A DNA stretch of 32,000 nucleotides, from contig OZ245049.1 in assembly GCA_965224465.1 (NCBI GenBank), forward strand, positions 240,001 through 272,000. Direction: 5' to 3'. The position numbers and the translations under genes are program-made. Origin of the DNA: Flavobacteriaceae bacterium. GTDB lineage: Bacteria; Bacteroidota; Bacteroidia; Flavobacteriales; Flavobacteriaceae. The notes below the pieces were generated by a model, which saw only the letters and a list, made by a program, of their open reading frames with translations, made no database searches and was not told where the DNA came from. Each line of letters begins with the position of its first letter. Within the stretch, counting starts at the first letter, position 1. Positions 10,624 to 31,058 of this stretch are shown here, one piece after another.

Positions 10624-10632
10624 ATTATGAGC

Positions 10633-13722: not shown

Positions 13723-14148
13723 ATGAGTGATACTTTTATTGTTGTAAGTACGTGTTTTTTAGGGTTTATTGTATATGTATTTGTTTTTAAGGCGGCATTA
13801 AAATTTAAAATGAATACGAACCTGTATCTTTTGTTGTTAGCCTATTTTATAAGTCCTATATCATTTGAAATTACGTTTCAAATTTTTATTTACATACTTT
13901 TCCAAACATATGCTAAGAAACCACAACTGGATGTAATTATTTATTGGTGGATTCTAATTAAAATTCTGTTAATGATGGTCTATTTTTTAATGGATCTTTC
14001 TTCTGGGGAATCAAGTGGTTTTGGTAGTGATGCTGCTGGTTTTTCAATGGTGTCAGGAAAGGATTTTATCTTTCAAATTGTTTATCAGATGGTGGTTTTG
14101 TTGCTAACGATTATTGTCTTTTTTATACATGAAAATAAGATGATTATA
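13723..14148 (+). CDS. Multi-pass membrane segment (142 codons) with no stop, reading in frame into Tli-like copy D
   Basis: About four hydrophobic helices (FIVVSTCFLGFIVYVFVF, LYLLLLAYFISPISF.., IIYWWILIKILLMMVYFL, VYQMVVLLLTIIVFFI). There is no stop codon before the ATG at 14149. Confidence 0.4.
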
Positions 14149-15195
14149 ATGAATAAAAAAACAGCAATATGCGTAACGTTATGCTTTGTGTTACTATTAA
14201 TAAACTGTAAAAGTGATAAAATGGAGAAAGAATATATATGGATGGTATCTGCGGATGCTGCAAAAGGTTTTCCCGCAACCTTTCATTATGGTTATTTAGG
14301 TGATACAGGAATAAGAGGAGGAGGTATTTTGGGTTATGGTTGGGGTTTAGGAGGGACTTTGACAGGGTCTATATCCGAAAAGAGACCCTTACCTAAGCAA
14401 TTAGACTTGGTCTGGATGTCCTATGTAGAAAACCAGTTTTATGAAGGGCATTTTGAATTGGATCATAAAAAAATAGCCACTATTTTTGAAAAAGGCTATA
14501 AAAATAACACAGACAAAGGAGTTGTAATGGATCATGAATTCACTTTTAGAATAAACGTGGCTCCTGGAGGCACCGTGGCTATTTGGTTAATGGGACAATA
14601 TGGTTTTCAACGGGAAGTGGGCTTTTACCAAGCAAAAAAAACTTCGGTTGTATGGAGGGAATTTGTACCGACTGGATTACAAGATAGAGCATTGTATGTA
14701 AAAGAAACGTTGGAAGAAGAACTAACAAAAAAACAGCTTGAGAAATACCAATCAGAAGGTATTCCTTATGAGAAATGGAAAAATTACCGGCAGCAATTTG
14801 AATGGAAAGTTTCTATTGAAGGAAGCTCAAGAGTGATATTCTTAAATTCGGAAACATTTAATGGAGAGCAATATACCTTGAAAGATGTTTTTTTAGATAT
14901 TGATAATAATGTAATAAAAGCAGCTTTACCCAAAGAGTTAGGAATGCAATGGGAGGAAGATCCGGCAAAGGAGGAGATGTTTACTGCATCATTAAAAATA
15001 AAGGAAAATGATTTTAAAAAACTAACAAGACTTTTTAAAGAAAATAATTCCAAAGGACATTTTGTGATAACACCTTATATGGCTAAAAACGTAAAAAAAG
15101 TAAGGTTGTTTTTAGTTACAGGTACTAAAAAGGAAGAATTGGAATTAGAGGAGAATACGGTGCGTCATTTTCCTGATTATTATAAAAACAAATAG
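14149..15195 (+). CDS. Tli-like lipoprotein copy D (intact frame)
   Basis: 348 codons with its own signal peptide and lipobox MNKKTAICVTLCFVLLLINC. It is a mosaic of the copy A middle segment and the copy B 3' segment. Confidence 0.75.
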   Translation: MNKKTAICVTLCFVLLLINCKSDKMEKEYIWMVSADAAKGFPATFHYGYLGDTGIRGGGILGYGWGLGGTLTGSISEKRPLPKQLDLVWMSYVENQFYEGHFELDHKKIATIFEKGYKNNTDKGVVMDHEFTFRINVAPGGTVAIWLMGQYGFQREVGFYQAKKTSVVWREFVPTGLQDRALYVKETLEEELTKKQLEKYQSEGIPYEKWKNYRQQFEWKVSIEGSSRVIFLNSETFNGEQYTLKDVFLDIDNNVIKAALPKELGMQWEEDPAKEEMFTASLKIKENDFKKLTRLFKENNSKGHFVITPYMAKNVKKVRLFLVTGTKKEELELEENTVRHFPDYYKNK

Positions 15196-15247
15196 ATTAT
15201 GAGCGGAATTTTTTTTGGAGACTACGAGCCATTAGTACAATAAAGGT

Positions 15248-16300
15248 ATGAATAAAAAAACAGCAATATGCGTAACGTTATGCTTTGTGTTACTATTAAT
15301 AAACTGTAAAAGTAATAAAATGGAGAAAGATTATATATGGATGGTATCTGCGGATGCTGCAAAAGGTTTTCCCGCAACCTTTCATTATGGTTATTTAGGT
15401 GATACAGGAATAAGAGGAGGAGGAGTTTTGGGTTATGGTTGGGGTTTAGGAGGGACTTTGACAGGGTCTATATCCGAAAAGAGACCCTTACCTAAGCAAT
15501 TGGACTTGGTCTGGATGTCTTATGTAGAAAACCAGTTTTATGAAGGACATTTTGAATTGGATCATCAAAAAATAGCCGCTATTTTTGAAAAAGGCTATAA
15601 AAATAACACAGACAAAGGAGTTGTAATGGATCATGAATTCACTTTTAGAATAAACGTGGCTCCTGGAGGCACCGTGGCTATTTGGTTAATGGGACAATAT
15701 GGTTTTCAACGGGAAGTGGGCTTTTACCAAGCAAAAAAAACATCGGTTGTATGGAGTGAATTTGTTCCGAATGGATTGCAAGATAGAGCATTGTATGTGT
15801 CAAATAGACTAAAAAAACGTGTAACAAAAAAACAACTCGAGCAATACCAAAACGAAGGCATTCCTTATGAGAAATGGAAAAATTACCGGCAGCAATTTGA
15901 ATGGAAAGTTTCTATTGAAAGAAGCTCAAGAGTGATATTCTTAAATTCGGAAACATTTAATGGAGAGCAATATACCTTGAAAGATGTTTTTTTAGATATT
16001 GATAATAATGTAATAAAAGCAGCTTTACCTAAAGAGTTAGGAATGCAATGGGAGGAAGATCCTGCAAAGGAGGAGATGTTTACTGCATCATTAAAAATAA
16101 AGAAAAATGATTTTAAAAAACTAACAAGACTTTTTAAAGAAAATAATAGCAAAGGACATTTTGTGATAACACCTTATATGGCTAAAAACGTAAAAAAAGT
16201 AAGGTTGTTTTTAGTTACAGGTACTAAAAAGGAAGAATTAGAATTAGAGGAGAATACGGTGCGTCATTTTCCTGATTATTATAAAAAAAATAAATTATGA
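15248..16300 (+). CDS. Tli-like lipoprotein copy E (intact), putative cognate immunity protein of the Tle1-like effector
   Basis: 350 aa with a lipobox. Its stop overlaps the effector start (ATGA at 16297..16300). Confidence 0.8.
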   Translation: MNKKTAICVTLCFVLLLINCKSNKMEKDYIWMVSADAAKGFPATFHYGYLGDTGIRGGGVLGYGWGLGGTLTGSISEKRPLPKQLDLVWMSYVENQFYEGHFELDHQKIAAIFEKGYKNNTDKGVVMDHEFTFRINVAPGGTVAIWLMGQYGFQREVGFYQAKKTSVVWSEFVPNGLQDRALYVSNRLKKRVTKKQLEQYQNEGIPYEKWKNYRQQFEWKVSIERSSRVIFLNSETFNGEQYTLKDVFLDIDNNVIKAALPKELGMQWEEDPAKEEMFTASLKIKKNDFKKLTRLFKENNSKGHFVITPYMAKNVKKVRLFLVTGTKKEELELEENTVRHFPDYYKKNKL

Positions 16301-17988
16301 GCGGAATTATTTTTGGAGACTACGAACCGAGTAAAACACCTATGGAAAGAGGGGCGGATGCTATTATAGGGGTGTTTTTTGATGGTACAGGAAATAACCG
16401 TAAAAATGTACGTGCCTTTAAAGCTTTTAAAGGTGAAGATATTAAAATTGATGCAGGTGAAAACAAGCAAAAATATCTAGATGCTTACCACAAACATGCC
16501 GATAAAAATGATGGTCACAATAGTTATGAGGCAGACGAATCAAATGTATCACGCCTACAACCATTATATGTTGTGGATAAAACAAAAATATTCAGTTTAT
16601 ATGTAGAAGGTATCGGTACGGAGAGTTTTAAAGGTGACTCTGGTGTTGGGAGTGCTTTGGGTACAGGTGATACAGGTATTATAAAACGGGTAAAAAATGC
16701 ATGTGAAACAATAGCTAAAAAAACATTAAACGGAATAAAATCGAAATCTAAAGACACCAAAGGAAACATGCTTATAGAAAAAGTAATCTTTGATGTGTAT
16801 GGGTTTAGTAGGGGAGCAGCCGCCGCGAGACATTTTGTAGCTCAGGTTAAAAGCAAAGGGAGCTATAACAAATATAAGGATAGGAACGGAGAAACACATA
16901 TTGTGGATATTCCAGACTTTGGGTACTTAGGATATGCCTTAAAAAAGGCTAAAATAACCATAAATACTATTGAAATACGCTTTGCTGGATTGTATGATAC
17001 GGTGTCCTCTTATGGTATAATACATAAAAACGACCATCAGCAGTTAGCCTTAAATCAGTTACACCATGTTAAAAAAACGATCCATTTAATAGCACAAGAC
17101 GAAATACGGTATAATTTTGATTTGACAGATATTACGAGTGCGGGATATAAAGGACTTACCATTAGTTTTCCAGGTGTACATTCTGATATTGGAGGTGGCT
17201 ATTTACAAAATATAAAAGAAGAAAAAGTGTTGTTATGGGATCTAAATGATGATGGCGAAGAAGCTTTAAAAAAACACAACTATTTTATAGCAGAAGGATG
17301 GTACAAAGCACATGAAATAGATTTAATAGATGGTAAAATAAGAGATGAAATTATAGGGAGAAGAATAAACATAACCAATAAGTACAGTGTATTGCCATTG
17401 CAGTTAATGGGGAAATTATCGGATGAGTACAAGGCTAAAATTGATATAGATGCTTTAGAAGATGATTTTAAAACAGAAGGGGCTTTATTAAAAGAAGTGG
17501 AAAAACGTTTAAAGGCACAGTTTTCAGCAAAATATACTAAAAAAACAACACGTATTGATTTGTTAAAATTTGATTCCGTTGAAAATGAAAAGGAGCTATT
17601 AGCAGAAAAACAAAGAGAATTAAAGGAAATAGCCAGTAAGTGGAAAATACAGCTTAAGACTTTAAATAATAAGCCTATAAAACCCTTATACAATGCTTGG
17701 AACTACGCTCCTAGAATTGACAAAATAAGAGTTGTGCAAAATAAACGAATGATAGCAAAAGATACTGTTCCTCTTGATACGATTAATTATTCTGCATTAA
17801 GTGATAACCAATTACTACGAGCTCTGCGTAATAAGTTTTTACACGTCTCTTTTGATTATACCAATGCAACACCAACTAGCTGGTGGCAATATATAGGTGT
17901 GTTACATGAAATTATACGTTATCAAGAGCCTATGAAACCAAGAGAAAATGGACAGCGAGTGGTCTATGAAGATTTAAAAAAATATTAG
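16297..17988 (+). CDS. Tle1-family (DUF2235 alpha/beta-hydrolase) T6SS phospholipase-type effector
   Basis: GVFFDGTGNN N-terminal motif, GxSxG as YGFSRGAAAARHF, AGLYDTVSSYG, and HSDIGGGY. All are hallmarks of DUF2235/Tle1. The position next to hcp-vgrG and lipoprotein genes fits. Confidence 0.8.
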   Translation: MSGIIFGDYEPSKTPMERGADAIIGVFFDGTGNNRKNVRAFKAFKGEDIKIDAGENKQKYLDAYHKHADKNDGHNSYEADESNVSRLQPLYVVDKTKIFSLYVEGIGTESFKGDSGVGSALGTGDTGIIKRVKNACETIAKKTLNGIKSKSKDTKGNMLIEKVIFDVYGFSRGAAAARHFVAQVKSKGSYNKYKDRNGETHIVDIPDFGYLGYALKKAKITINTIEIRFAGLYDTVSSYGIIHKNDHQQLALNQLHHVKKTIHLIAQDEIRYNFDLTDITSAGYKGLTISFPGVHSDIGGGYLQNIKEEKVLLWDLNDDGEEALKKHNYFIAEGWYKAHEIDLIDGKIRDEIIGRRINITNKYSVLPLQLMGKLSDEYKAKIDIDALEDDFKTEGALLKEVEKRLKAQFSAKYTKKTTRIDLLKFDSVENEKELLAEKQRELKEIASKWKIQLKTLNNKPIKPLYNAWNYAPRIDKIRVVQNKRMIAKDTVPLDTINYSALSDNQLLRALRNKFLHVSFDYTNATPTSWWQYIGVLHEIIRYQEPMKPRENGQRVVYEDLKKY

Positions 17989-17990
17989 AA

Positions 17991-18932
17991 ATGCAACAAC
18001 AACCATCCAATCAGAACCAAACGCTACCCTTGGTAAAAGAAGGGCCTAAAAGGCTGCGTTTTTATAAAAACGGGAAAATAAAAAACCAAGCTAGGTATGC
18101 GCATCGCACCTATGGAGTTTCTATTGGATATACGGATGGAAAAACCATAGATTATTTGTTGGAAGTAAAATGCATTAAAAAGGTTGGGGATTGTTTGTAT
18201 TATGAGCTCCATAGAAAACGGTTTTTTAAAAATGGCGAACAAGTACATTCGTTTATGGACACACTCGCCGAAAAAAGTATTGGCTGTTTGTATCCATTAG
18301 TGTTAAAAGTAGCCGATAATGGCGAAGTCATAGGCATAGAAAACCAAGTAGAAATAGAAAAACGATGGAAAGAAAATCGTAAAAAGATAGCAAAAACGCA
18401 CCAAGGGGAAATAGTAGAAAGTTATTTTAAAACCATGGACAAGGCTGTAAGTAGCGCCGCTAATTTGGCTAAAAGTCTCGCAAACGATATGGTTTATAGT
18501 TTGCTGTTTTCTAATATATACATTGCCTATACAAAAGAATACCAAGTGGAGCTAGTAAAAAAAACACCTTTTATTGCAAACTATAAAACATTGGTATTTA
18601 AAGGGCAGCAGCGAATAGAAACGCATGTAGCTAAAAATAATCGGTGTAGTATTTATTACAAGGGAGCATTACAAGCTACAAATCAACTGAAAGAAGGGGA
18701 TTTAAAGATACACTATCAATTGGATGCCCAAGATTATGGACTGTTAAGAGTTGATGGAGAAGCAACTTATATATTGGGAGCACATAAAAAAATAATCACC
18801 TTTAAAATAATAGCACAAAAAACGCTTGATAAAACCAAAGAAAGCACCATAAAAGCACACAAAGCATTAGGTATTTATAACGACCCCAACGAACCTGAAC
18901 CTAAATGGTACCAACTTTGGAAATATCTATAA
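17991..18932 (+). CDS. Hypothetical 313-aa cytoplasmic protein (no signal peptide) between the effector and the PAAR-like gene
   Basis: The ORF starts 2 nt after the tle1-like stop. No motif recognised. Confidence 0.6.
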   Translation: MQQQPSNQNQTLPLVKEGPKRLRFYKNGKIKNQARYAHRTYGVSIGYTDGKTIDYLLEVKCIKKVGDCLYYELHRKRFFKNGEQVHSFMDTLAEKSIGCLYPLVLKVADNGEVIGIENQVEIEKRWKENRKKIAKTHQGEIVESYFKTMDKAVSSAANLAKSLANDMVYSLLFSNIYIAYTKEYQVELVKKTPFIANYKTLVFKGQQRIETHVAKNNRCSIYYKGALQATNQLKEGDLKIHYQLDAQDYGLLRVDGEATYILGAHKKIITFKIIAQKTLDKTKESTIKAHKALGIYNDPNEPEPKWYQLWKYL

Positions 18933-18943
18933 AAAAGAAAAAA

Positions 18944-19414
18944 ATGGGAAAAGCACTAGTATGTCAAAAAGCAGAATGCGAATGTGAACACGGTAATATG
19001 CCGGATAAAATAATATCTGTAAGTAAGCATCGGCAATATGTAAACGATGTGGAAGGCGAAGAAAAAATGATCGTTTCTACGATGGATATCGGCCAACCTT
19101 TTGAAAAAAAAACCTTTGGGACTTGTAAATTACAACCTACGCCAAGTGGTTACAAAGTATGCCAACCACAAATAACAAAATGGGAGGATTTTTACGATAA
19201 AGTAACACTGGACAACGGAGGGAATCCCATTTTAGAAAACAGCAAAGCCATCTGCCCCATTGCAGGAGTTGCTTGTATTTCTATTACTTTTCATGGACAA
19301 AAAGGAGAAATGACAGAACAGCATCAAGAGGAAGCCGACCCCGAAGTACAAAACATGCTAAATCCATTGGCTAGTAGTACGGAACAAGGAGAAGAACCAC
19401 AGGAGAGATATTAA
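18944..19414 (+). CDS. DUF4280 PAAR-like spike-tip protein
   Basis: MGKALVCQKAECECEHGNMPDKI...FGTCKLQP......CQPQITKWEDFYDKV...GNPILENSKAICPIAGVACISITFHGQ matches the DUF4280 Cys / FG.C / W / C.P / GQ pattern. It has an acidic C-terminal tail. The ATG at 18944 is preferred over 18905. Confidence 0.75.
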   Translation: MGKALVCQKAECECEHGNMPDKIISVSKHRQYVNDVEGEEKMIVSTMDIGQPFEKKTFGTCKLQPTPSGYKVCQPQITKWEDFYDKVTLDNGGNPILENSKAICPIAGVACISITFHGQKGEMTEQHQEEADPEVQNMLNPLASSTEQGEEPQERY

Positions 19415-19425
19415 AATTTAAAAAC

Positions 19426-22400
19426 ATGGCATCAGAAAAAATTATAGTAACAACTAGTTCAAAAAAAATAGTTTCAGAAGGAACCGCTAGTTTTAAAGCG
19501 GCATTATTAAGTGAGCAAGGTGCTCTATTGCAAAAAAAACTAGAGAATTTTCGTGTTTTTGAGGCTGTAGTAGGCCAACCTATTTCTTTTAAATTAATTG
19601 CAGATGTAAGTACAACCATAAACCCCATAGCAACACAAACACGTGTTTTTCTTGCGAAACAATCCTTAAAAAACTTTGGAAAGCATGAATGGATGCCTTT
19701 TGACGGAGTAAGCAATAAAGAAAATTTGCATGATCTAATAAATAATTTAAGTAAAAAACAAATTTCACTTGACTTATTCAATAAACTTTCGGATAAAGGA
19801 ACAAAAAAGGTAGGGAAAAATTATTTACAAAATTTTGAAGTTGCTAACATTAATGGTAAGACCACATTTCGAGAAATTAAAACGTCATTTACACTTACCG
19901 CGGAAGATATTGGCAAAGGGTTTTGGGTAGAAGCATTTAATTACAAACCCGAATGGATAAAGGAGCAAGGAGTTATAATTGTAGGTGTTGAGAACCCAAA
20001 AGTCGTCAGTTTTTATGCAAAAAAAAGAGATATAAAAGAAAATAAAATAAAAACAATTGCCAAAGATACAATAGAAACAAGTATTAGTAAAGAATTGGTT
20101 TATGGTGATATTCTAGATATTTTTATACATATCCACACTAGAAATAAAAACTTTCCTATTACCTTAAGTATCATAAATACCGATGGAGGAAAAGAAACTA
20201 TTTTACATACTCAAGAATTCAGCGAAAAACACTTTATAAGCAGACCAACTACAATAGGTAGAGTTTTAACAATCGAAGAAATTAATTTATTGCCACAATG
20301 GATTTCATTACTTAAACATGAAGTAGGTACACAAAAAAACTTTGTAATACGGATGGAGTTAGATCTTTGCTCAACTAAAGATGTTAAAGGGAATTATTCT
20401 TTTGAAAGTATTACAAAAGAAATAAATTTCACAATAAATTATAAAGACGAATGGAATACAGACCAAGACGAAGCCGAATGGATAGCCCAAATAGCTGAAA
20501 TAAAAGAAGCTCCCTTGGTTACTCAAAAACATGAAGAATGCCTTTATACAGCATTGGAGGTTAAAATTGAAGGAGAAGAAGATGTTATCATTTTAAAAGA
20601 ATGCGAAAATGAAGATGGTTCTTTAGATATAAACGACACAACAACCATCATAGAAATTATTGCAGGGAATAAGGCAAATAAAAAAACAATTACAATACTG
20701 GCAAAGAATTTAGATACTACTAAATGTGTAAATGAAATGGGGTTTAGTAATACCGATACCAAAAGTGGTGCGCATACAGGGGATGTTTTTAATACGGATG
20801 AACTTTTTTACTTAAACGATATTATAAGAGGAGCTACAGATAAAAATATTTTTAAGGTAGCCCCCAATCTAACATACAAGGTAAATGAAGACGCAGGAAC
20901 ATTAACTATCGATGCAATGTATGGTTATGATACATCACATAAATTAAAAGGATTAAAGTACCTGCCTGGGGTAGGTTATAACACTTTAATAAGCAGCCTC
21001 CCTGGCATACATACTTTTCTGATACCTGTACAAACCTGTAGGTATATACGTACGCCACTTTTTAAAATTTACCCCGACGATTTATGGACGTTTCATTTGA
21101 TTTATAATGGTTTAGGAGGAAGTTACTTTTTTCAAGAAGATGATTCCTATGATGATAAATTATTAAAGGGGGCAGATAAATTACTGAAGAGGTTTTCTGA
21201 ACATTTAGATGAATATATTATTGAATTATCTAATGTTTCAGAATCAGAAGGTTTAGTAATGATAGATAAAAAAGATGAAGATACAATTTTTAATAAAATG
21301 ATTTCTTGGGCTAAAACTTCTATTGGAGGTGAAGAGGAAGATACTTTATTAATTGCAGGTACAAAATGGATTAAAGATAAGTTGATAGAGTTTTTAAAAG
21401 CAGAAGCGCAAAAAAATGCTATTGGATTTCTTTTGCAATATGATAACAAAAATAAAGAAATTGATTATACAAAAGAATATCAAGAGGTGTTTGAAGGTAT
21501 GATTTTAGCAATGATGACAGTTTCTTTTATTTTAGAGATATTACTTATGTTTTTTTCTGGAGGAAGCACAGCTATATTTAAAGCTAAAAAGGCATTAAAA
21601 GCAACAAAAGTAGCTTTTACTAAAAAAAATTTCAACCCTGCTACTTTTAATAAAATAAAAGAAAAATATAAGGAATTAGGAAAAGCTTATGATGATATTG
21701 GATTAAATAAAGAAGTAGAGCTTAATTATAATGAGTGGGAGGATGTTAAAGGAGATAAGGCAAAAGGTTTTTCTAGCTATAGCATGTCTAAGAGAAAAAA
21801 AATAGATATAAATATTGATATTATTTTACCAAAAATAGGTGTAAATTATGGTACTTATTACGAGAAACAACCTGATGGAAAAGTAAACAGGATACATGAG
21901 TTTGCAATAAAAGCAAATCCTTTTTTAGCTGTTAATATTGATGCGGCAATGAATACGGATCAAATAATAAAAGTAATAAAAAATGTAAACCGATGGATGC
22001 AAGGTTTAGAACCTAAAACTTATGACATAAAAAAAGGTAAAACTATTGATGCCTCTCTTAAATTTGGTTTTGTAGCTATTGGAGCTATAGTAAGCGAACT
22101 TAAAGTAAAGTTTAATAGCAATACTAAAACATTCATTATAAAAGACCATGAAAACCAAAAAGAAGAGAAAAAAACAGACGATAAAGTAGTTATAAAAAAT
22201 GGTGCACGTATAATTGTAGATTTGTACGGAAAAGGAGAAATGAAAGCCCAAGTAAAATGGGTGCCATTTTTAAAAGCCTCAGTATCTGCAAAGGTTAATG
22301 TTGGGGGGCATGTAGGTGTAAATAATATTTATGGCTACGATAGTAAAGGGCCTTATATGCACCAAGAATTTTATTTTTCGGGGCTAAAAGGTACTTTTAC

Positions 22401-22572
22401 CGCGAAAATGATTATTGGGAAGAAAAATGTATTTTCATTTAATTCAGATAATCAAAAAATAAAAAACGGAGAAATAAGTGATAAAACAAAAAAGGAGTTA
22501 GAAGAAAATGCAATAGAACCTTATGTAATGCAAACCCCAAAGTTTTACCCTTTAGATTTAATAAATAATTAA
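19426..22572 (+). CDS. 1048-aa protein of unknown function, a candidate T6SS cargo effector
   Basis: A long uninterrupted ORF 11 nt after the DUF4280 gene. It has one strongly hydrophobic helix (FEGMILAMMTVSFILEILLMFFSGG) and a Gly/aromatic-rich C-terminal ~150 aa. Partial copies of its middle and C-terminus occur downstream. Confidence 0.85.
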   Translation: MASEKIIVTTSSKKIVSEGTASFKAALLSEQGALLQKKLENFRVFEAVVGQPISFKLIADVSTTINPIATQTRVFLAKQSLKNFGKHEWMPFDGVSNKENLHDLINNLSKKQISLDLFNKLSDKGTKKVGKNYLQNFEVANINGKTTFREIKTSFTLTAEDIGKGFWVEAFNYKPEWIKEQGVIIVGVENPKVVSFYAKKRDIKENKIKTIAKDTIETSISKELVYGDILDIFIHIHTRNKNFPITLSIINTDGGKETILHTQEFSEKHFISRPTTIGRVLTIEEINLLPQWISLLKHEVGTQKNFVIRMELDLCSTKDVKGNYSFESITKEINFTINYKDEWNTDQDEAEWIAQIAEIKEAPLVTQKHEECLYTALEVKIEGEEDVIILKECENEDGSLDINDTTTIIEIIAGNKANKKTITILAKNLDTTKCVNEMGFSNTDTKSGAHTGDVFNTDELFYLNDIIRGATDKNIFKVAPNLTYKVNEDAGTLTIDAMYGYDTSHKLKGLKYLPGVGYNTLISSLPGIHTFLIPVQTCRYIRTPLFKIYPDDLWTFHLIYNGLGGSYFFQEDDSYDDKLLKGADKLLKRFSEHLDEYIIELSNVSESEGLVMIDKKDEDTIFNKMISWAKTSIGGEEEDTLLIAGTKWIKDKLIEFLKAEAQKNAIGFLLQYDNKNKEIDYTKEYQEVFEGMILAMMTVSFILEILLMFFSGGSTAIFKAKKALKATKVAFTKKNFNPATFNKIKEKYKELGKAYDDIGLNKEVELNYNEWEDVKGDKAKGFSSYSMSKRKKIDINIDIILPKIGVNYGTYYEKQPDGKVNRIHEFAIKANPFLAVNIDAAMNTDQIIKVIKNVNRWMQGLEPKTYDIKKGKTIDASLKFGFVAIGAIVSELKVKFNSNTKTFIIKDHENQKEEKKTDDKVVIKNGARIIVDLYGKGEMKAQVKWVPFLKASVSAKVNVGGHVGVNNIYGYDSKGPYMHQEFYFSGLKGTFTAKMIIGKKNVFSFNSDNQKIKNGEISDKTKKELEENAIEPYVMQTPKFYPLDLINN

Positions 22573-22581
22573 AAATATAAA

Positions 22582-23535
22582 ATGAAACAACTAATAAGAG
22601 TCATACTATTATGTATTATGGTGCAAGCTTGTGGACAAACGTATAATAAAATGGAAAGAGATAAAAATATGATAACTGCTAATAATTTTGTTGAAGAAAC
22701 AGAAAAACATGTAAAACATTTTGAGAAAGAGCCTTATTACAAGATGCATACTGGGTCTCCACAGGATTGTAATTATGAAATTTCGGTAAACGATCTCCCT
22801 GTATATAAAAGTTATTCAGGTTTCAAAGATTTGACAGGAACTCCAATAAACGAGGCTATATTGAAAAGTGGAGAACAACGGATTACCATAAAAATATTCC
22901 CGCCAGAAAAGGATAGTATACTCAGCAAACAAGCCAATATGTATTTTAGATTGGTAGAGGTAGATCATATGACCAGTCAATTCGAAGAAAAAAATATTTT
23001 AAGTTTTGTATTACCTTCAGATGATGATGGGGATTTTTCAGGAGCAGGTTTGCCTTATTTTGAAAAAGAATTGGTTTTTAATGCTTCTGTACCTTATGAG
23101 GTAAAAGGTTGGAGTGAAAGTCAAAATCTTTCTAAGTTAGACCAAGATAAATTAAAAGAAAAAGTAATTGGTTTTTATAAAAAAACGGGTGTCGAAGAAG
23201 TGAAAAAAAACATCGATTTTCTTTTTAATGCTATGCATAAAAAACAAGTGGAGAGAGCTATTTCAAATTATACTTCCAAGGAAGATTTAGCCGTTATGAT
23301 TAATGAAATGAAAAGATATGTAAAATATGCTAAACGTTTTGAATTAACCGAACCATATACAATGAAACTATATGGAAATAACCGTTTAGTTATTTTGGAA
23401 GTTTTAATTGGTGAATATAAAGGAGATGGAGCTCATTCTTTATTTGTACAGAAAGGAGAGGAATCTGGATTTAATAGAGATACCTATTACCTCCACATAC
23501 CTAAAGGAAAAACAGCATTAGAGATCATAAGGTAG
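22582..23535 (+). CDS. Lipoprotein, putative immunity protein for the 1048-aa protein
   Basis: MKQLIRVILLCIMVQACGQ has a lipobox. It starts 9 nt after the effector stop. A diverged paralog follows the orphan C-terminal fragment. Confidence 0.7.
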   Translation: MKQLIRVILLCIMVQACGQTYNKMERDKNMITANNFVEETEKHVKHFEKEPYYKMHTGSPQDCNYEISVNDLPVYKSYSGFKDLTGTPINEAILKSGEQRITIKIFPPEKDSILSKQANMYFRLVEVDHMTSQFEEKNILSFVLPSDDDGDFSGAGLPYFEKELVFNASVPYEVKGWSESQNLSKLDQDKLKEKVIGFYKKTGVEEVKKNIDFLFNAMHKKQVERAISNYTSKEDLAVMINEMKRYVKYAKRFELTEPYTMKLYGNNRLVILEVLIGEYKGDGAHSLFVQKGEESGFNRDTYYLHIPKGKTALEIIR

Positions 23536-23569
23536 TAAAAAAAGTCTAACAGTTTGTTAGGCTTTTTTT
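23536..23569 (+). terminator. Rho-independent terminator closing the effector operon
   Basis: agtctaaca-gtt-tgttaggct hairpin (one G-U pair) plus ttttttt. A decayed copy lies at about 26346..26380. Confidence 0.65.
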
Positions 23570-23572
23570 ACC

Positions 23573-24040
23573 AATACATTTGATTTTAAAAAGCACGAAA
23601 ACCAAAAAGACCCAGATAAACTCAGCGATAAACTGATTTGTAAAAACGGAGTTCGAATAATTGTGGATGTATTTGGAAAAGGAAAATTATCGCTTAAAGT
23701 ACGGTGGAAAGAAATTATTAACTATACGCTAGCCGAAGTAAGTGTAAAAGCAACACTGGGAGGCCATATAGGTGCAAATTCTATTTATGGCTACGATGAG
23801 CAAGGCCCTTATATGCAACAAGAAATTTATTTCTCTGGATTGAAAGGGAGTTTTGAGGTGAAAGGACGTTTTAATAACAATGATATCTTCTCCTATAGCA
23901 CAGAGAAACAGAAATTAATAAACGGAAAAACAGCAGACAAAACGGCAGAAGAATTACAAGAACAAGTATTGGAACCTTATGTATTCCAAACCAAAAAGTT
24001 TTACCCTTTAACTTTAATGAAAAATGAGAATAATAATTAG
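23573..24040 (+). pseudogene. Orphan, promoterless and start-less C-terminal fragment (~155 codons) homologous to the end of the 1048-aa protein
   Basis: NTFDFKKHENQKDPDKLSDKLICKNGVRIIVDVFGKGK..GGHIGANSIYGYDEQGPYMQQEIYFSGLKGSFEV..EPYVFQTKKFYPLTLM aligns with KTFIIKDHENQKEEKKTDDKVVIKNGARIIVDLYGKGE..GGHVGVNNIYGYDSKGPYMHQEFYFSGLKGTFTA..EPYVMQTPKFYPLDLI. It begins immediately after the terminator. Confidence 0.8.
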
Positions 24041-24156
24041 AATGATATTAATGAGCTATATGTTCGTGGCATGTGGACAACAAAAGAATGAGAAAATGGA
24101 AGAAATAACATTTGATAATTTACCTAATATTTTAGAAAGAGAAATTAAACATTAGC

Positions 24157-25277
24157 TGAATTCAAGTCACAAACGCAACTTTTAGTTAAATAATAATTGT
24201 TCCATTACAAATATAGGGTTTTGATATTTATGTCTCTTCCTAGGTCTGTTATTTAATTTTGTTTCTACCTCTTTGATTCTTTGATCTGTTAGGTTTGTAA
24301 AGTCACTTCCTTTGGCAAAATATTGTCTAATCAAACCATTTAAATTTTCGTTAGATCCTCTTTCCCAAGAGTGATATGGATGCGCAAAAAAGTAATCAAT
24401 ACATAAATTTTCTGCAACCTGCTCATGGCCTGCAAATTCTTTTCCATTATCAGCTGTTATAGTATGTAGATAAGGCTTCCAGTCTTCTAATATTTCATTG
24501 ATAGCTTTAGTGACAACAACTGCTTCTTTAGAGCTTACTTTTTTCATTTTAAGCATTCCAGAAGCTCTATCATTTACGGTAAGTATGGCTTGATTATGGT
24601 TTTTACCTATGATTAAATCGACCTCTAAATCTCCAAATCGATTTCTTTGTTCAACAACTTCAGGGCGTTGTTCTATACTAATACGATTCTTTATAACCCC
24701 TCTAGAATCCTTTGATGAGCCACGTTTTCTATATCTCCTTCCCTGTCTGCGAAGGTGTGTATGTAAATCACCATCATTCCTCTTGTCTTCCCTAATATGC
24801 TGATATATACGCTCAATAGACACCGTTTCTTTACCTTGTTTTTTTAGGACACCAACTACTTGCTCAGGACTATAATCGTCTCGCAATAACAACTCTATTG
24901 CTTGTTGAATATCTTCTGTAAAGCGTTTTCTTTTAGGCTTTTCTTTATGACGTTTAGCATACTTTTTTTGGGCTAATTCATGCTTGTAAACTCCATTTCT
25001 TTTGTCTGAATTACGCTTAATCTCTTTGCTAATAACAGACTTGTCTTTTCCTATAGCAGCTGCTATCTCAACCTGTTTATAACCTTGTTTTAACATGCAA
25101 CAAATTGTGTATCTTTGCGCTTGGGTGATGTGTTTCATACAACTTCTTTTTTCGAGATTTGAGACCGTAAGATACATATCCATCAAGACAAGAAAGGTAG
25201 GTTTTCCTACTTTTCTGTTTTGAAAATATAACCATCATAGAATCAAATCGAAAAGTTGCGTTTATTAGTTGAATTTA
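24157..25277 (-). mobile_element. IS30-family insertion sequence (about 1.1 kb)
   Basis: 27-bp imperfect inverted repeats (23/27): tgaattcaagtcacaaacgcaactttt (24157..24183) and aaaagttgcgtttattagttgaattta (25251..25277). Confidence 0.8.
24182..25138 (-). CDS. IS30-family transposase
   Basis: MKHITQAQRYTICCMLKQGYKQVEIAAAIGKDKSVISKEIKRN.. HTH, ..LTVNDRASGM.., ..ITADNGKEFAGHE.., ..PYHSWERGSNENLNGLIRQYF.. DDE region. The Met at 25138 is the likely start. Confidence 0.85.
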   Translation of the reverse strand: MKHITQAQRYTICCMLKQGYKQVEIAAAIGKDKSVISKEIKRNSDKRNGVYKHELAQKKYAKRHKEKPKRKRFTEDIQQAIELLLRDDYSPEQVVGVLKKQGKETVSIERIYQHIREDKRNDGDLHTHLRRQGRRYRKRGSSKDSRGVIKNRISIEQRPEVVEQRNRFGDLEVDLIIGKNHNQAILTVNDRASGMLKMKKVSSKEAVVVTKAINEILEDWKPYLHTITADNGKEFAGHEQVAENLCIDYFFAHPYHSWERGSNENLNGLIRQYFAKGSDFTNLTDQRIKEVETKLNNRPRKRHKYQNPIFVMEQLLFN

Positions 25278-26000
25278 AGTTACCTTTAAACCCAATGCTG
25301 GTAAATAGCGGGATAAAAGAACTAAAAATAAAAATATACCCAAAGGAAGGCGAAAAGGTATTAAGCAGTTATACTCGTGTAGGTTTAACACTTTATTTTG
25401 CGCCAGACAAAGATAGTAGATTAAAAGACTACCAAAAAATAGCTACCTTTAAATTGCCAGAAGATATTGCAGAGCAAAAACTACCTTATTATGAGGGTGT
25501 AATCACTTTTAAAGCAGAGGTTCCTTTTGATTATAGTCAAGATTTAGAGGACGCAGTTAATATAGAAAAATTAAAAAGCATAGAAAAAAAAATAGTTAGT
25601 AAATACAATGAACTTAGGGAAATGTGTATTAATAATGATGTTATAGATTATAATAAACGTCAAATACATTCTTCAATCATAGTTTATAACACAACTTATG
25701 AAAATACTATAGAAGAAATAGAAAAATCTGAAAGTACTATTTTATCTATGGTAGACTCTAGATTAGAAAATAAAGAAGTATTACCAATAGAGAATTATAT
25801 TATTCAATTTTATGCTGAGGGTAAAATCGTTGCATTATGGCAAAAAGATTTAAACCCCATGTTATATGTAAAAGGAACGCATACCAACACGGAAGGGTTT
25901 ACAAGGAAATATGAATATGGTGACGCCATTTTTTTATATATGCCTAAAGGTAGTAAGGAGTTGATAATGTGGTAGTCAAAAGTAATATAATATTAATTTT

Positions 26001-26437
26001 ACAATAAATTATAAAGATGACTGAAGCGTAGACCAAGACGAAGCCGAATGGATCGCCCAAATAGCTGAAATAAAAGAAGCTACCTTGGTGACTCAAAAAC
26101 ATGAAGAATGCCTTTATACAGCATTGGAGGTTAAAATTGAAGGAGAAGAAGATGTTATCATTTTAAAAGAATGCGAAAATGAAGATGGTTCTTTAGAAAT
26201 AAATGACACAACACCCATCATAGAAATTATTGCAGGGAACAAGGAAAATAAAAAAACAATTACAATACTGGCAAATAATTTAGATACTACTAAATGTGTA
26301 AATGAAATGGGGTTTAGTAAAACAGCATTAGAGATCATAAGATAGTAAAAAAAGCCTAACATTGTGTTGTGCTTTTTTTTTAAAACAATAAATTTGATTT
26401 TAAAAAGCACGAAAACCAAAAAGACCCAGATAAACTC
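26001..26437 (+). pseudogene. Collapsed chimera: effector middle fragment (matches 20431..20750) fused to the last codons of the immunity gene, then the terminator and the start of the orphan C-terminal fragment
   Basis: 26001..26320 is near-identical to 20431..20750 but contains stops. The junction ggtttagtaa|aacagcattagagatcataa continues as 23511..23625 (TALEIIR*, hairpin, tttgattttaaaaagcacgaaaaccaaaaagacccagataaactca). Confidence 0.8.
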
Positions 26438-26479
26438 ATGTTTATATTATCCCAAAAGTATACCTGTAAATTTAAATAA

Positions 26480-26902
26480 AAGAAGCTACCTTGGTCACTA
26501 AGAAGAATGTAGCTATACAGAAATAAATATTACAGGATTAGAAGAGCCTTTTTTAAAACAAAATACTGATGGATGTTTGGATAATTATCCAACTTCGATA
26601 TTGGAATATGTAGGAGGAAATAAAAAAAAGCCTAAAACCATTACTATCAATCTTAAGGACGTGGAAACTACAGAATGCCAAGAAGCAGGGTTTGACAATA
26701 CCCCCCTGCCGCACTAGTAGCCGCTATCGCTAGGCACGATTGTATCGTGTAGCGTCTATCAGTAAGCCATGCAGTTATTTATTTTTCATATCGTATTGTA
26801 ATAGGTAAAAAGATTCCATATTAGGGATTCGTAAGCTGCTACGGTCATACGATACAATCGCGAGAGCGGGGGGGGTATACGGATGTTAAGATTTTCAGTT
26901 AA
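26480..26902 (+). pseudogene. Second, more divergent fragment of the same effector middle region, interrupted by a GC-rich palindromic element
   Basis: KEATLVT.. ..NKKKPKTITINLKDVETTECQEAGFDNT parallels KEAPLVTQ.. ..NKANKKTITILAKNLDTTKCVNEMGFSNT. After the element, tatacggatgttaagatt parallels catacaggggatgtttttaat (HTGDVFN). Confidence 0.55.
26698..26878. repeat. GC-rich palindromic (MITE-like) element of about 175-180 bp
   Basis: The ends are ataCCCCCC (26698..26706) and GGGGGGGGtat (26868..26878). Internal complementary blocks are cgattgtatcg (26737..26747) and cgatacaatcg (26850..26860). GC content is strikingly above the surroundings. Confidence 0.55.
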
Positions 26903-26962
26903 CAGGTACAACCGTGGTGGCTATATTAGTAAATATTTTTCCTTAAAGCTCTGTTTTTATAA

Positions 26963-27796
26963 TTAATTAGAATATTTTGGTGCTACCCATCTTTTATAAA
27001 TAAAAAATTCGATTAACGGTAGGCTGATAATAATGAGTAATAAAATTAACTGAGACAAAACCAAAGATTTATATTGATTGTATAGTACCGAATCATACCA
27101 TATCATTAATTTATCAATTATTCCTTGTTTAATATCTTTAAATCCTACTTTCAATAAAAAATCCATTCCAGCACTAAACTCATTAAATGATAATGATTCT
27201 TTAATATTAACATGAGCACTTGCTCCAGCTACATTAAGCATAGCATAGACAGATGTTTTGTAAATATCATCTCCATACTTATCAATAAGAAAGGTCACTA
27301 CTTTATTTTTATTGTTATCGATAACGGAATATCCTGTATTATATTCCGTTGTTATTATTTTTAGAGACGCTACCAGAGCATAGGAACCATCTTTTACCTC
27401 TATCGCTGATTGCTGTAATTTATGAATAAATTCATTTTTACTTTTTTCAGATTCAAAAGATTGTTTAAGAACATTATTATAAATACCAGATACGATAGCC
27501 TTATTTTCTTTATCGAGAATCTTGTATATACCTGTTATGAAACCAATATGCCCAAAAATAAATATAAATCCAACAACAAGCATAGGGATATATAATTTTA
27601 CCGCCCAATTGTAATATTTTGGTTTTCTCTTTAAAATCTTTTTTTTATGTAGAATGATGCTATAAAAGATTGCTATAATAAAGCCAAGAAGTATAAAAAT
27701 AATGATGTTAAAAATTAAGGTACCTATGTGAGGTAGAATAATATCTTTAATAATGTTCCAAATTACATTCCATTCAATTTTATTAAAATTCTCCAT
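26963..27796 (-). CDS. Hypothetical integral membrane protein (277 aa)
   Basis: The N-terminal region has two long hydrophobic helices, and there is a C-terminal helix (LVLSQLILLLIIISLPLIEFFIY). No motif recognised. Confidence 0.55.
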   Translation of the reverse strand: MENFNKIEWNVIWNIIKDIILPHIGTLIFNIIIFILLGFIIAIFYSIILHKKKILKRKPKYYNWAVKLYIPMLVVGFIFIFGHIGFITGIYKILDKENKAIVSGIYNNVLKQSFESEKSKNEFIHKLQQSAIEVKDGSYALVASLKIITTEYNTGYSVIDNNKNKVVTFLIDKYGDDIYKTSVYAMLNVAGASAHVNIKESLSFNEFSAGMDFLLKVGFKDIKQGIIDKLMIWYDSVLYNQYKSLVLSQLILLLIIISLPLIEFFIYKRWVAPKYSN

Positions 27797-28390
27797 TTTG
27801 TATCTTCTTAATTAATGTATCTCAACCTAAAATGCTTGAGTACTTGTTTTTTATGCTTGTTTAATTATTTATGTTTTGAAATAAATTTTTTGTAATTTAC
27901 TCATATACAGCGCGATAAGTTTTGTGTTGTTGTTGTAACCGTTATACTTGTTTTTGGGTGAGGGGACTGTTGTATTTTTGTTAAAGATATCTAAATTTTT
28001 TAATTTTCCAAGAGGTCCAATTTTTTTTATCGTTTATTTCGATGGGTTTAGTACAATACATATCTGTTGTCTGAGTAGAGGTGAATCCTAACATGTTTTG
28101 AGCATGCCAGATGGGAACTTGGTTGATGATGTTTGGGGTAAAATTAGTTCCTTAGCTATGAACTGCCAGAACTAGTCTATATTATACGGATGATTGGCGC
28201 TACGGATCTGTTTAATCAAGCTTTTATCAAAATTTTGTACATTTTAATTACCTTAGCATAATGTTCAATCGCATTAAATTCATCAGTATTATTTCCTTCT
28301 TCTAAAATAATTTTTATAATTCAGATTGGATTTTTACACCACAACGGTTCATGTAATAACAGTAAGAGTTTGGTTTCAGATTGACTTTTG

Positions 28391-28490
28391 AATTATAGCT
28401 AGGCGATAAATGGATGGATAGCCTTAGCTAGAGTTCTGTTTTTCAACAACGCCAGCACGTAAAACAACCTATTTATATCGGTCATTTTGG
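28391..28490 (-). repeat. Repeat X copy 4 (MTDINRLFYVLALLKNRTLAKAIHPFIA*)
   Basis: Shares cagcacgtaaaacaacctatttatatcggtcatttt exactly with copy 1 and the agctaggcg..ctgttt..caacaac portion with copies 2 and 3. Confidence 0.5.
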
Positions 28491-28532
28491 ATTTTAGGTT
28501 GGTATTAAGTAGTCATTGTTTTTATCGGTAAA

Positions 28533-28928
28533 TTATGATTCTTTCGTTTTAATAGAATGAGATAAAAACTCAATACTAGAGAATTTGTTTTTAGATATCT
28601 TAATTTCACTCATAGTTTTTCCCTTAGCATAGTAATTTTTATATAGGTTTAATAAGATAATAGGAAATAAAATAAAATGCCAAATTTCTAATTCATTTCT
28701 TGCATAATTGATAACAGGAATTTCATTGTTCAGTTTTAAAATATGTTCTTCTGTAACATTCTGATTAATGTATTTTTTCAATTCATTTGAATATCGAGAA
28801 TAATTTTCGAAATTCATAGAAGAATAATCACCCTTTTCAATCTTATCTGCTTGAGAAATTATATCGGTTATTTGTCTCTTGAGAAGCTCTTTTCTTTGAT
28901 TATTCATAGTAATAGTTATTACTGCCAA
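28533..28928 (-). CDS. Hypothetical 131-aa protein with one hydrophobic helix
   Basis: ORF only (..IWHFILFPIILLNLY..). No recognisable motif. Confidence 0.4.
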   Translation of the reverse strand: MAVITITMNNQRKELLKRQITDIISQADKIEKGDYSSMNFENYSRYSNELKKYINQNVTEEHILKLNNEIPVINYARNELEIWHFILFPIILLNLYKNYYAKGKTMSEIKISKNKFSSIEFLSHSIKTKES

Positions 28929-29861
28929 CGGGTACTTGTAAGTAATTGTCTTTAAGTTTATTAATTAGGTCTATAGGTTGTTTTTTACATAAACGCCAAA
29001 CTTTATATGTTGCGCTCTTTGGCGATGCATATACTTTTTTATTTACTACAACCCCTTGTGATTTATACACTTTGTATGTACTCTACATAGCTAGAGTATA
29101 ACTTCGGAAAGGTAGTTAATTAATCTAGAGGAAGCAAGTTCTTACATGAAAGAGTTACGTTATGAATTGCATCGAATCAGGAACTTCATAAAATGGAAAA
29201 TTGTGAATAGGCATTAGTAAGCCGCAAGAGTAAAAACCGTTAGATTCTATCTGAAGATTGGTTGTGATTTAGTCATTCTAAAATTCTAATATAAAGCAAG
29301 GTGCTGATCCCGAATCAAGTGTGAGGTAGCTAAACACAATTATTCATAGTAAATCCAGCGTTCCTTATGTAACAAATAAATGAGTGAAGAGTAAATCGTA
29401 TACAGAGGTATAATTACTTGGGGATGAAAGGACATTATTGTAAGGTTCAAAAGCATGTACTACCCAAGATCCTCTTTTTAAAACGAGATAGAAAACAGGG
29501 TGTTTTATGATTGGAGATACCATATTTAATCACTAATAGCAAACTATATTGATATGGTTAAGTGGTATACTTTTCGGTTAATAGGAGGTATGGTTTTTAG
29601 TTAACATATACTCAATACAATTCCATACTTAGCAAGCAAAGTACTCATTAGAAAGTAGGGTTGATAAACTTAAATATTGGTTCTAAATATGAAGTAAAAT
29701 AGAGTAAAACGTATAGAAATACGCTTTGCTTGAAGTAACGATAGGAGCGGAGTGGGAATGTGTGTGGAATGGGAATATACAAATGATGTTAAATTATTAT
29801 TACTATTTCAAATATATTGATTATATTACATCAATAGTGTGATTATTTAAACACAGTTAAT

Positions 29862-30100
29862 ATGGCAACAATATGTAAAACGATAACTTTTACCGAACAG
29901 CAAGATAAATGGATAAAAGCACAAATGACAGCGAATATATTTGAAATCTTGTACATCAGGACCAAGCAAACAATGCCAAGTTTATTTCGCTCAAAACCAA
30001 ACTCATCAATGGTCTAGAAAGTGGAACTAGTAATAAATCATTACCAGATATAATGAAAGAAGTCGAAGCACGTATGCAAGAAGATGGGCGTTTGATATAA
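29862..30100 (+). pseudogene. Decayed ParD-like (ribbon-helix-helix) antitoxin
   Basis: Frame a reads MATICKTITFTEQQDKWIKAQMT. The frame starting 29930 reads SEYI*NLVHQDQANNAKFISLKTKLINGLESGTSNKSLPDIMKEVEARMQEDGRLI. Together they match the ParD pattern (..W...Q...G.Y...SEYIR.LIR.DQ....L..L...L..G..SG) but need a frameshift and have a TGA at 29942..29944. No ParE-like ORF lies adjacent. Confidence 0.5.
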
Positions 30101-30326
30101 GCCAACGTATAGATTATAAAAGTAATCTATTAACATAATAAATTAGTATAGAAAACTGTTAATAATTATTTGATTTAGAGATGTTAAAGTAATTGGAATT
30201 AATTCCTAATGATTTAACTCAGAGACAGAAAGAATATTTTAATATTGATCTTCCAATAAAAAAGATATAATCTATTTTTTAAATTAAATAGAAATGGAGT
30301 AATTATAAAAACATAACACTATAATT

Positions 30327-31058
30327 ATGAGTGTATCTGATGATATAAAAAGAATTTTATGGCACGAAATGGGACATTTATGTGTCGATACTATAAAGAT
30401 AGAAACACATAATAATCTAAAAGTTAACTTATTAAATTTAACTGTTGCTAATGACGGTTTATTTAAATGGAGTGGTTTCGTAGAAATGCTTCCGAGTTTA
30501 CCTTTTAAAGATATCCCTATAAATCACTCAATATTAGCATATTCGCTAATTAGTTTACAGGCTGGTTGTGTATTTGAGACTATCTATTTTCAAATTATAA
30601 AAGAAAATTCATCAATAAATTTTGGAGATTGTTTTTCTTTTAATAGAGAATGCATTGGGAATGGAGATTGGACAAATTATCATGAAATTTTATCAAAAAT
30701 ACGCGAGATCCATCCTGAATTTCGTGGTAAACTTGATTTGAATGGCTATTTGGAAATTGATTTTTCTAGATTAGTAAATATTGCACTTTTCAAGTTGTCA
30801 GAATTCATTACAAAAATGAATGAAATAATTGATAATGAAGTTATTAAAATAGAGAAAGACTTTACAGGAAGAGATGGGGCTCATGGAATATATAGCTATA
30901 ATTATAGTGGAGATGAGTTAACTGAGTTGATTAATAGAATAATACCATTAATGAATGAATTAGGGTTTAGAGATACTCTAATGGAACTTCATGAGTCATT
31001 TATTAAAAAATTCAGTGATTACATAGACAAATATGACGTAAGGTATAATATTATGTAA
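30327..31058 (+). CDS. Hypothetical protein with an N-terminal HExxH motif (possible zinc metallopeptidase)
   Basis: ILWHEMGHLCVD at residues 10-21. No signal peptide. The rest is unrecognisable. Confidence 0.55.
   Translation: MSVSDDIKRILWHEMGHLCVDTIKIETHNNLKVNLLNLTVANDGLFKWSGFVEMLPSLPFKDIPINHSILAYSLISLQAGCVFETIYFQIIKENSSINFGDCFSFNRECIGNGDWTNYHEILSKIREIHPEFRGKLDLNGYLEIDFSRLVNIALFKLSEFITKMNEIIDNEVIKIEKDFTGRDGAHGIYSYNYSGDELTELINRIIPLMNELGFRDTLMELHESFIKKFSDYIDKYDVRYNIM

Follow-up and report, generated by a model that had tools for sequence, protein, structure and literature searches.

Downstream of a predicted type VI secretion system (T6SS) effector gene, a Flavobacteriaceae bacterium carries what is very probably a decaying stack of effector/immunity cassettes, pushed downstream as incoming DNA replaced the resident, T6SS-iii-linked cassette. 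The stack occupies positions 23570-26702 of the window, by which we mean the whole stretch of 32,000 nucleotides (nt) that was analysed (contig OZ245049.1 of assembly GCA_965224465.1, positions 240,001 to 272,000 of the forward strand). The unit that would be replaced comprises a ~120-nt block, the rest of a conserved module, the toxin region, a lipoprotein immunity gene and a terminator, with a shared left edge that lies in the block; the source of each replacement appears to be incoming DNA and not the relics nearby. The phenomenon, in which cassettes of a polymorphic toxin (here a T6SS one) are displaced, is already known from other bacterial weapons. What is new here is the toxin/immunity family, the T6SS-iii setting in Flavobacteriaceae and the well-defined boundaries of the cassettes.

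Relics behind the resident effector and immunity genes

The resident effector is laid out as an N-domain (amino acids (aa) 1-330; ~30-330), a conserved module (aa 333-443) and a toxin region (aa 444-1048), and its gene is followed by the candidate immunity gene imm1 and a terminator-like hairpin (Table 1). Using DNA self-comparison and tblastn with the effector, we found a series of relics behind this hairpin and no further ones anywhere else in the window. None of the relic-to-effector matches is expected by chance. The original prediction, drawn from the letters of the window, had read this region as an orphan effector C-terminus with its immunity gene and recombination scars, and pairwise DNA comparison confirmed that the repeats are real and homologous to the effector.

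The first relic, CT1', is the start-less fragment that had been predicted directly behind the terminator as a homologue of the effector end. It corresponds to aa 900-1048 of the effector (52% aa identity in frame 2; tblastn E 3e-48), with positions 23569-24036 aligning to 22122-22580 at 69% nt identity and a synonymous divergence (dS) from the resident end of 0.83. CT1' begins right behind the hairpin, and its first possible start codon is a GTG at 23663. Its stop codon is overlapped by the start of imm1', an arrangement shared with the resident toxin-immunity pair. imm1' finds its best match in the imm1 family (score 66, against 45 for imm2) and is only ~65% nt identical to the 5' end of the imm2 gene of a related locus, L002.

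The element at which imm1' is cut off encodes an IS30-family transposase (NF033563, E 1e-86; Pfam HTH_38/rve) and has imperfect terminal inverted repeats of 39 nt (24145-24183 and 25251-25289; 77% complementary). Its flanks read ...TTAAA / IS / TTTAA... with no evident direct repeat, and the exact ends of the insertion sequence (IS) are uncertain. On its right lies the 3' part of an imm2 gene, which is 94.4% identical in nucleotides and 93% in amino acids to positions 7330-8016 of L002 (a 312-aa lipoprotein gene, partner of a toxin of CT2, the type seen in Tenacibaculum), with a ratio of non-synonymous to synonymous change (ω) of 0.18 between the two. This orphan shares 47-53% aa identity with the immunity arrays of Tenacibaculum and only 25% with imm1. 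The original prediction had a single immunity paralogue split by IS30; immunity-type sequence does stand on both sides, although it belongs to two genes, imm1-like on the left and imm2-type on the right, which rules out a simple insertion into one immunity gene. Because the flanks come from different genes, ~40 codons are absent between the imm1' and imm2 parts and no target-site duplication is seen, we infer that IS30 marks a deletion junction at which two distinct orphan cassettes were fused.

Behind the orphan imm2 comes a chimera of effector middle, immunity tail, terminator and orphan start, as had been predicted. Its first part, fragment E, is 94% nt and 91% aa identical to 20422-20753 and carries an in-frame TGA at codon 11; the junction between the imm2 stop and the block is also present in L002. 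Its second part, fragment F, matches window positions 23509-23624 at 90%, L003 at 93% and L008 at 95-97%. The two meet at 26319-26323, in frame and across a short imperfect microhomology, and the deletion in the chimera amounts to 2.76 kb (20753 to 23509). Fragment G, which follows, is more diverged (47% aa identity to effector aa 359-443, E 1e-11; 80% nt identity to L002 5371-5611 and 8112-8358); a 7-nt gap shifts its frame, and it stops 2 nt past a GFDNT motif.

A third divergent middle fragment had been placed at 26480..26902, and of this the effector homology holds for 26474-26702. From 26703 to 26902 no homology to the effector is present; this stretch is an inverted-repeat element, element H, which itself gave no tblastn match to the effector. 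Its terminal inverted repeats are ATACCCCCC...GGGGGGGTAT, with an inner repeat CGATTGTATCGT...ACGATACAATCG (DNA fold z -3.7). Element H occurs once in the window, and an Rfam search of 23400-30400, element H included, returned no match.

All orphans in the window are predicted to be non-functional relics: decay is indicated by the stop codon in E, the frameshift in G, the truncated immunity genes and the IS30 element. Between CT1' and its counterpart in L003 we obtained an ω of 0.47; this value and that of imm2 are consistent with genes that once functioned and then decayed. Two of the relic open reading frames (ORFs), 23663-24040 (125 aa; P0005) and 26085-26345 (~85 aa; P0045), sit in public collections as called proteins; start-less ORFs such as these are best handled as pseudogene relics.

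Cassette boundaries and alternative ends in related loci

We compared the window with two loci of a metagenome-assembled genome (MAG; L001 and L002), two metagenome contigs (L003 and L008) and four Tenacibaculum loci (L004-L007). A 3.16-kb block that spans module, toxin and immunity gene is 97.5% identical to L001 and has sharp edges, with its start at 20411. Per 100 nt, identity to L001 is 41-59% over codons 1-330, 84-100% over 20401-23500 (100% across imm1) and 45% after 23501, while the genes upstream of the effector range from 62 to 95%. A 3.16-kb unit of module, toxin and immunity gene (plus hairpin) has therefore been exchanged between lineages.

Both edges of this unit recur among the relics. 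The left edge lines up with the first position of fragment E (25992, codon 333) and with the orphan blocks in L002, and the right edge falls at the imm1 stop/terminator, exactly where CT1' begins. At the left boundary, the ~120-nt block is 87-93% nt identical over five copies (the residents of the window and of L001, fragment E, the CT2 gene of L002 and the L002 orphan), with exact runs of 20-71 nt inside it, whereas its flanks are 37-53% identical between cassette types. At the right boundary, L003 has a different immunity allele (52% aa identity) upstream of the same junction of immunity tail, hairpin and CT1', which is 91% nt identical to that in the window. In L008, three [3' toxin remnant + immunity + terminator] units follow one another, the first remnant comprising 141 aa (908-1048) and the next 67 aa (982-1048), a pattern that repeated displacement would be expected to leave. 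The first of these remnants (L008 845-1276) is a mosaic whose 5' part is nearest to the CT1' of the window (82% nt) and whose 3' part is nearest to the resident CT1 type; homologous exchange between alleles therefore occurs inside the toxin region as well.

Alternative C-termini, which had been proposed as the mark by which the idea of module swapping would stand or fall, are present in related genomes. Between two effector alleles of Tenacibaculum finnmarkense, identity is complete (100%) over aa 51-450 and drops to 28-52% after aa 550, and behind each allele stands an immunity subfamily of its own. The effector of the window and P0007 share 46-82% identity up to aa 400 and at most 21% after aa 550. 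The immunity arrays of T. finnmarkense and T. dicentrarchi follow CT2-type effectors, and L004-L007 hold 3-4 tandem immunity paralogues of 67-87% identity. A constant N-terminal part with alternative C-termini and a co-varying downstream immunity gene would make this a polymorphic toxin system in the generic sense of Zhang et al. 2012. What did not survive of the original prediction, which had the effector swap its C-terminal modules by homologous recombination, is the role of the local orphans, which are unusable, and the position of the joints: boundaries recur not at 'the C-terminus' but at the block (codon ~333), at the GFxNT motif (codon ~443) and at the immunity tail with its terminator.

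Proposed order of events and alternative explanations

In the displacement that we propose, the intragenic ~120-nt block would serve as the recombination anchor and the start-less 150-codon remnant at 23570 would mark an illegitimate joint. The right end could be closed in two ways. By homology-facilitated illegitimate recombination, a join in the 3' part of the resident toxin gene would leave a start-less remnant and, with it, the former immunity gene; a junction of this kind, when already present, could instead allow a homologous crossover in the conserved immunity tail/terminator. The window can then be explained in five steps. A CT2/imm2 cassette would first have been resident, to be replaced by CT1'/imm1', which in turn would have given way to the present CT1/imm1 and left 150 codons of CT1' behind. 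An IS30-associated deletion would next have removed the sequence from imm1' codon 43 to imm2 codon 83. Lastly, recombination at the distal orphan block would have brought in resident-type sequence, from which a later 2.76-kb microhomology deletion could have produced E-F, while the older CT2-type module stub G would have stayed beside element H.

Several points weigh against this account. No full-length effector with a CT1'-type end was found among ~15 billion proteins, so homology is what speaks for a former active life of CT1', and ω in the CT1' comparisons is only 0.44-0.47. The comparison covers just ~8 related loci, drawn from 3-4 lineages. Metagenomes were scanned twice, with protein patterns taken from the module and with the exact DNA sequence of the block, and neither scan added a locus. 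Several steps are needed to account for the order of events and for how E-F-G arose, and more than one path would fit. Conservation of the block could largely reflect constraint on the protein, from which gene conversion or selection for recombination is inseparable here because the block has ~18 synonymous sites with a dS of 0.2-0.6. Lastly, the roles of the effector and the lipoproteins in secretion, toxicity and immunity are putative.

We regard it as unlikely that the block and the immunity tail/terminator are dedicated boundary sequences, kept at the nucleotide level as recombination handles in a recombinase-free, integron-like exchange of cassettes. If they were, fragment E-F, a left handle fused to a right one, would be the joint of an 'empty cassette', and GFxNT, with three independent truncations clustered no more than ~20 nt from it, would be a recombination hotspot.

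Less probable still is a purely local origin, in which the resident effector-immunity pair was duplicated in tandem and the copies diverged and decayed with no horizontal replacement. Such an origin would account for the 90-94% identity of E-F to resident sequence, including a resident-type terminator/CT1' junction; tandem duplication also occurs nearby, in the five DUF2931 copies described below, and the Tenacibaculum immunity arrays resemble tandem paralogues. It fits poorly with the dS of CT1' and with the orphan imm2, which resembles imm1 so little yet nearly matches a gene in another organism. The resident cassette is itself almost identical to that of the MAG between sharp edges, against a background of 62-95%, and fragment F is nearer to L003 and L008 than to the window's own copy.

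We give very little credence to a functional reservoir of silent cassettes, in which the orphans would be kept for homologous swaps into the expressed gene, as with orphan rhs/cdiA modules or pilS copies. E, G and the L002 orphans do begin with or include the block, with the 20-71-nt exact runs shared with the resident gene, and E-F shows that the distal block took part in recombination; in Salmonella, moreover, orphan Rhs modules can recombine into the main gene, as stated in a passage of PMC5361080 that cites that work. No orphan in the window, however, encodes a usable toxin end with an intact immunity gene. In CT1' a 5' homology arm is absent and nt identity to the resident gene is only 69%; imm1' consists of 42 codons only, and imm2 has lost its signal peptide along with ~83 codons at the start. 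E is interrupted by a stop codon and contains nothing of the toxin region, and G is frameshifted and truncated at GFxNT. Because CT1' is without a 5' arm, the immunity genes are truncated and E and G are pseudogenes, the orphans of the window could not be swapped back, and we return to displacement by incoming DNA as the preferred reading.

That the junctions are chimaeras of mis-joined reads is scarcely credible: the family is a repetitive one, in Tenacibaculum many of its homologues sit at contig ends and are annotated as partial, and these repeats also interrupt the MAG locus, but the proteins of the window are recorded on one 5.24-Mb contig, the terminator/CT1' and imm2/block junctions recur in independent assemblies (L003, L008 and L002), and the copies differ by 6-30%, unlike collapsed repeats.

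The effector and immunity families

The conserved module of the effector opens with INYKDEW...AQIAEIKEA.LVTQ..EEC and closes with GFxNT. The toxin region carries a C.Y.RTP..IYPD.W motif and, by hydropathy, one strongly hydrophobic helix (aa ~688-712), and the C-terminus is β-rich, with GYD..GPY.Q..YF.G.KG. Searches of Pfam (E<=0.01) and NCBIfam gave no match for the 1048-aa effector, the immunity proteins or the proteins of L002, and a sequence search of the PDB with a 15-sequence profile found no relative of the effector. An exhaustive search of 1.84 billion representative proteins yielded only 43 effector relatives, and a profile search of a word-indexed protein collection returned P0001 alone. 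AlphaFold2 models of the effector were unusable with a 6-sequence alignment (predicted local distance difference test (pLDDT) 31) and weak with 15 sequences (55.7). Foldseek with the latter model against the PDB gave nothing significant (best E 0.024, template-modelling scores ~0.1); its matches to pore forms and β-barrels were low-ranking and non-significant, and we take them as no evidence for the activity of the effector. To judge from its hydrophobic helix and from the lipoproteins paired with it, the effector is probably a toxin that acts in the periplasm or on the membrane and is neutralized by its lipoprotein.

The original prediction had likened the locus to Rhs and contact-dependent inhibition (CDI) systems. 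The likeness extends to the displaced toxin-end/immunity cassettes, as the related loci indicate, but not to the effector itself, which has none of the Rhs or CdiA domains or motifs. An Rhs protein is ruled out by the absence of a YD/RHS domain in Pfam and NCBIfam and of both P....DP.GL and DP.GL in regular-expression searches; CdiA is ruled out by the absence of an FHA domain and of VENN, and by neighbours that include Hcp, VgrG, a Tle1-like protein and DUF4280 and no CdiB. The boundary motifs of the family are INYKDEW...EEC and GFxNT, not PxxxxDPxGL. Its alternative ends are distant homologues in one toxin fold family (20-50% identity) and not unrelated toxins.

The equivalent of aa ~530-1010 of the toxin region is also found behind other N-termini, among them ones with an OmpA peptidoglycan-binding domain in P0060, P0063, P0068 and P0077, and the toxin module is therefore not limited to the T6SS-type N-domain. 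The N-domain (aa 1-330) is predicted to have been swapped too. Over 19426-20410 it shares only ~14-42% aa identity with L001 9935-10877, although the neighbouring DUF4280 gene upstream reaches 92-95% nt identity. In L002, part of a window-type N-domain (aa 258-372) survives at 92% identity in the orphan at 5070-5413.

The resident imm1 protein is 99% aa identical to its counterpart in L001. Across loci, the lipoprotein subfamily co-varies with the toxin type, CT1 going with the imm1 family and CT2 with the imm2 family, with 22-29% identity between these families; from this pattern the imm1 and imm2 lipoproteins are candidate immunity proteins cognate to the toxin type. L003, L001 and fragment F all conserve the hairpin behind imm1 and show compensatory changes in it. 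The conserved right boundary of the cassette consists of this hairpin and the final ~48 nt of imm1. A generic terminator scan missed this hairpin, which is supported by folding.

Genomic setting of the cassette locus

By its gene content, the low-GC window (~31%) is a predicted cargo locus of a Bacteroidota-type T6SS, linked to T6SS-iii: a Bacteroidota-type Hcp, a VgrG and a PAAR-like gene that adjoins the effector are all present (Table 1). The closest relatives are the Flavobacteriaceae MAG NORP270, T. finnmarkense and T. dicentrarchi, and Tenacibaculum shows the same synteny (Hcp, VgrG, DUF2931, Tle1, a 337-aa gene, DUF4280, effector and 3-4 lipoprotein genes). In T. finnmarkense (L005-L007), islands running from Hcp and VgrG through Tle1 and DUF4280 to the effector and immunity genes lie on contigs of ~20 kb, near ParA and two Rep3-type replication genes, which suggests that the Tenacibaculum cargo islands are plasmid-borne.

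The DUF2931 gene of the window, which is Tle1-immunity-like and ~1.05 kb long, is present in five copies of 94-98.5% nt identity. Several of them are broken into two ORFs, and one is fused within a 490-aa ORF (13723-15195). These copies are a second, much younger immunity-gene array of the locus. With the IS3-family and IS4-like elements upstream of this array and IS30, three IS families lie within 25 kb of the effector island. A scan for sigma-70 promoters found sites no more common than in shuffled sequence, the sigma-70 model not being applicable to Bacteroidota.

Table 1. Features of the window (positions from its first letter)
Feature	Position	Strand	Remarks
IS3-family transposase	2166-2999	-	rve/HTH_21; upstream of DUF2931 array
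IS4-like DDE transposase	4336-5769	-	upstream of DUF2931 array
DUF2931 genes, three copies	7379-8432, 8478-9531, 9577-10630		in tandem, upstream of Hcp
Hcp/TssD	11128-11526		PF17642, E 2e-40
VgrG	11694-13529		PF04717 and PF05954 matches
DUF2931 genes, two copies	14149-15202, 15248-16300		between VgrG and Tle1-like gene
Tle1-like phospholipase gene	16297-17988		
313-aa gene			function unassigned; after Tle1-like gene, before DUF4280 gene
DUF4280 PAAR-like gene	18905-19414		DUF4280 match E 3.5e-18; directly precedes effector
Resident full-length effector	19426..22572	+	ORF, 1048 aa
Conserved ~120-nt block	20420..20541	+	encodes INYKDEWNTDQDEAEWIAQIAEIKEAPLVTQKHEEC; left boundary of exchanged cassette
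imm1, resident immunity candidate	22582..23535	+	ORF; 317-aa lipoprotein, signal peptide, lipobox Cys
Terminator-like hairpin and T-run	23535..23571	+	fold dG -18.7 kcal/mol, z -6
CT1', orphan	23570..24040	+	start-less 3' remnant of a diverged toxin allele (aa 900-1048)
imm1'	24024..24149	+	5' end (42 codons, with signal peptide and lipobox) of imm1-family gene cognate to CT1'; cut off at IS30
IS30-family insertion sequence	24150..25285	-	transposase 24182-25186; ends approximate
imm2, orphan	25289..25975	+	3' part (codons ~84-312), without signal peptide
Fragment E	25992..26323	+	pseudogene copy of effector codons 333-443 (block and rest of module)
Fragment F	26319..26438	+	last 8 imm1 codons, hairpin and first 55 nt of CT1'
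Fragment G	26474..26702	+	diverged, frameshifted copy of codons 359-443 (CT2-type module)
Element H	26698..26878		~180 nt, GC-richer, resembles miniature inverted-repeat transposable elements; terminal inverted repeats; strand not assigned; adjoins truncated end of G

Comparison with known systems

The locus introduces a small, unannotated polymorphic toxin family that marine Flavobacteriaceae, the fish pathogens T. finnmarkense and T. dicentrarchi among them, carry in T6SS-iii cargo loci, and its conserved ~120-nt block offers a handle with which to find and type further cassettes.

Orphan rhs-CT/rhsI and cdiA-CT/cdiI modules have reportedly been described downstream of Rhs and CDI loci (Jackson 2009; Poole 2011; Koskiniemi 2014, the last cited in PMC5361080). 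The window resembles them in its constant N-terminal part, variable C-terminal toxin and cognate immunity gene, in the displaced start-less fragments downstream and in orphans that retain a piece of the conserved region (here the L002 orphan, E and G). It differs in having neither YD/RHS nor FHA repeats, nor PxxxxDPxGL or VENN, in that its ends are diverged members of one family and in that CT1' is without a conserved 5' arm. Gut Bacteroidales are likewise reported to carry orphan immunity islands that confer an acquired interbacterial defence (Wexler 2016; Ross 2019). There, as in Tenacibaculum L004-L007, T6SS-iii effectors are accompanied by effector-less immunity arrays; those islands, however, are mobile and recombinase-associated and hold intact genes away from the effector, whereas the relics of the window lie in situ, with effector fragments, and are degraded.

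The closest parallel comes from the T6SS arrays of Vibrio cholerae (Kirchberger et al. 2017, PMC5361080). In the model proposed for them, a conserved upstream stretch anchors incoming DNA while the far end joins illegitimately, so that the resident effector is truncated and its immunity gene shifted downstream; ordinary double homologous exchange also occurs. The two settings differ in several respects: the present one is a Bacteroidota-type T6SS-iii locus with an unannotated effector family, its anchor would lie inside the effector gene (the ~120-nt block at codon ~333) and be joined by a second boundary (immunity tail plus terminator), and neither orphan immunity gene of the window is intact, both being truncated at the IS30 junction. 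Because all of them are broken, protection by the orphan immunity genes of the window is not plausible.

The likenesses are nonetheless extensive. Each array stands at the 3' end of a VgrG-linked cluster and has a conserved upstream anchor; in each, an arriving module dislodges the resident effector, in whole or in its 3' part, and moves the former immunity gene downstream, at times together with what was the 3' end of the effector. Such a 3' remnant is kept upstream of the old immunity gene in CT1' and in the remnants of L008. Orphans match bona fide pairs of other strains, as imm2 does L002 at the nucleotide level and as imm1' resembles imm1, and the module is exchanged horizontally together with a conserved 5' anchor, here the 3.16-kb block with its ~120-nt block. 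The pattern of the window fits the displacement model, by analogy with these arrays, and a model proposed for Proteobacteria appears to apply to the T6SS of Bacteroidota as well.

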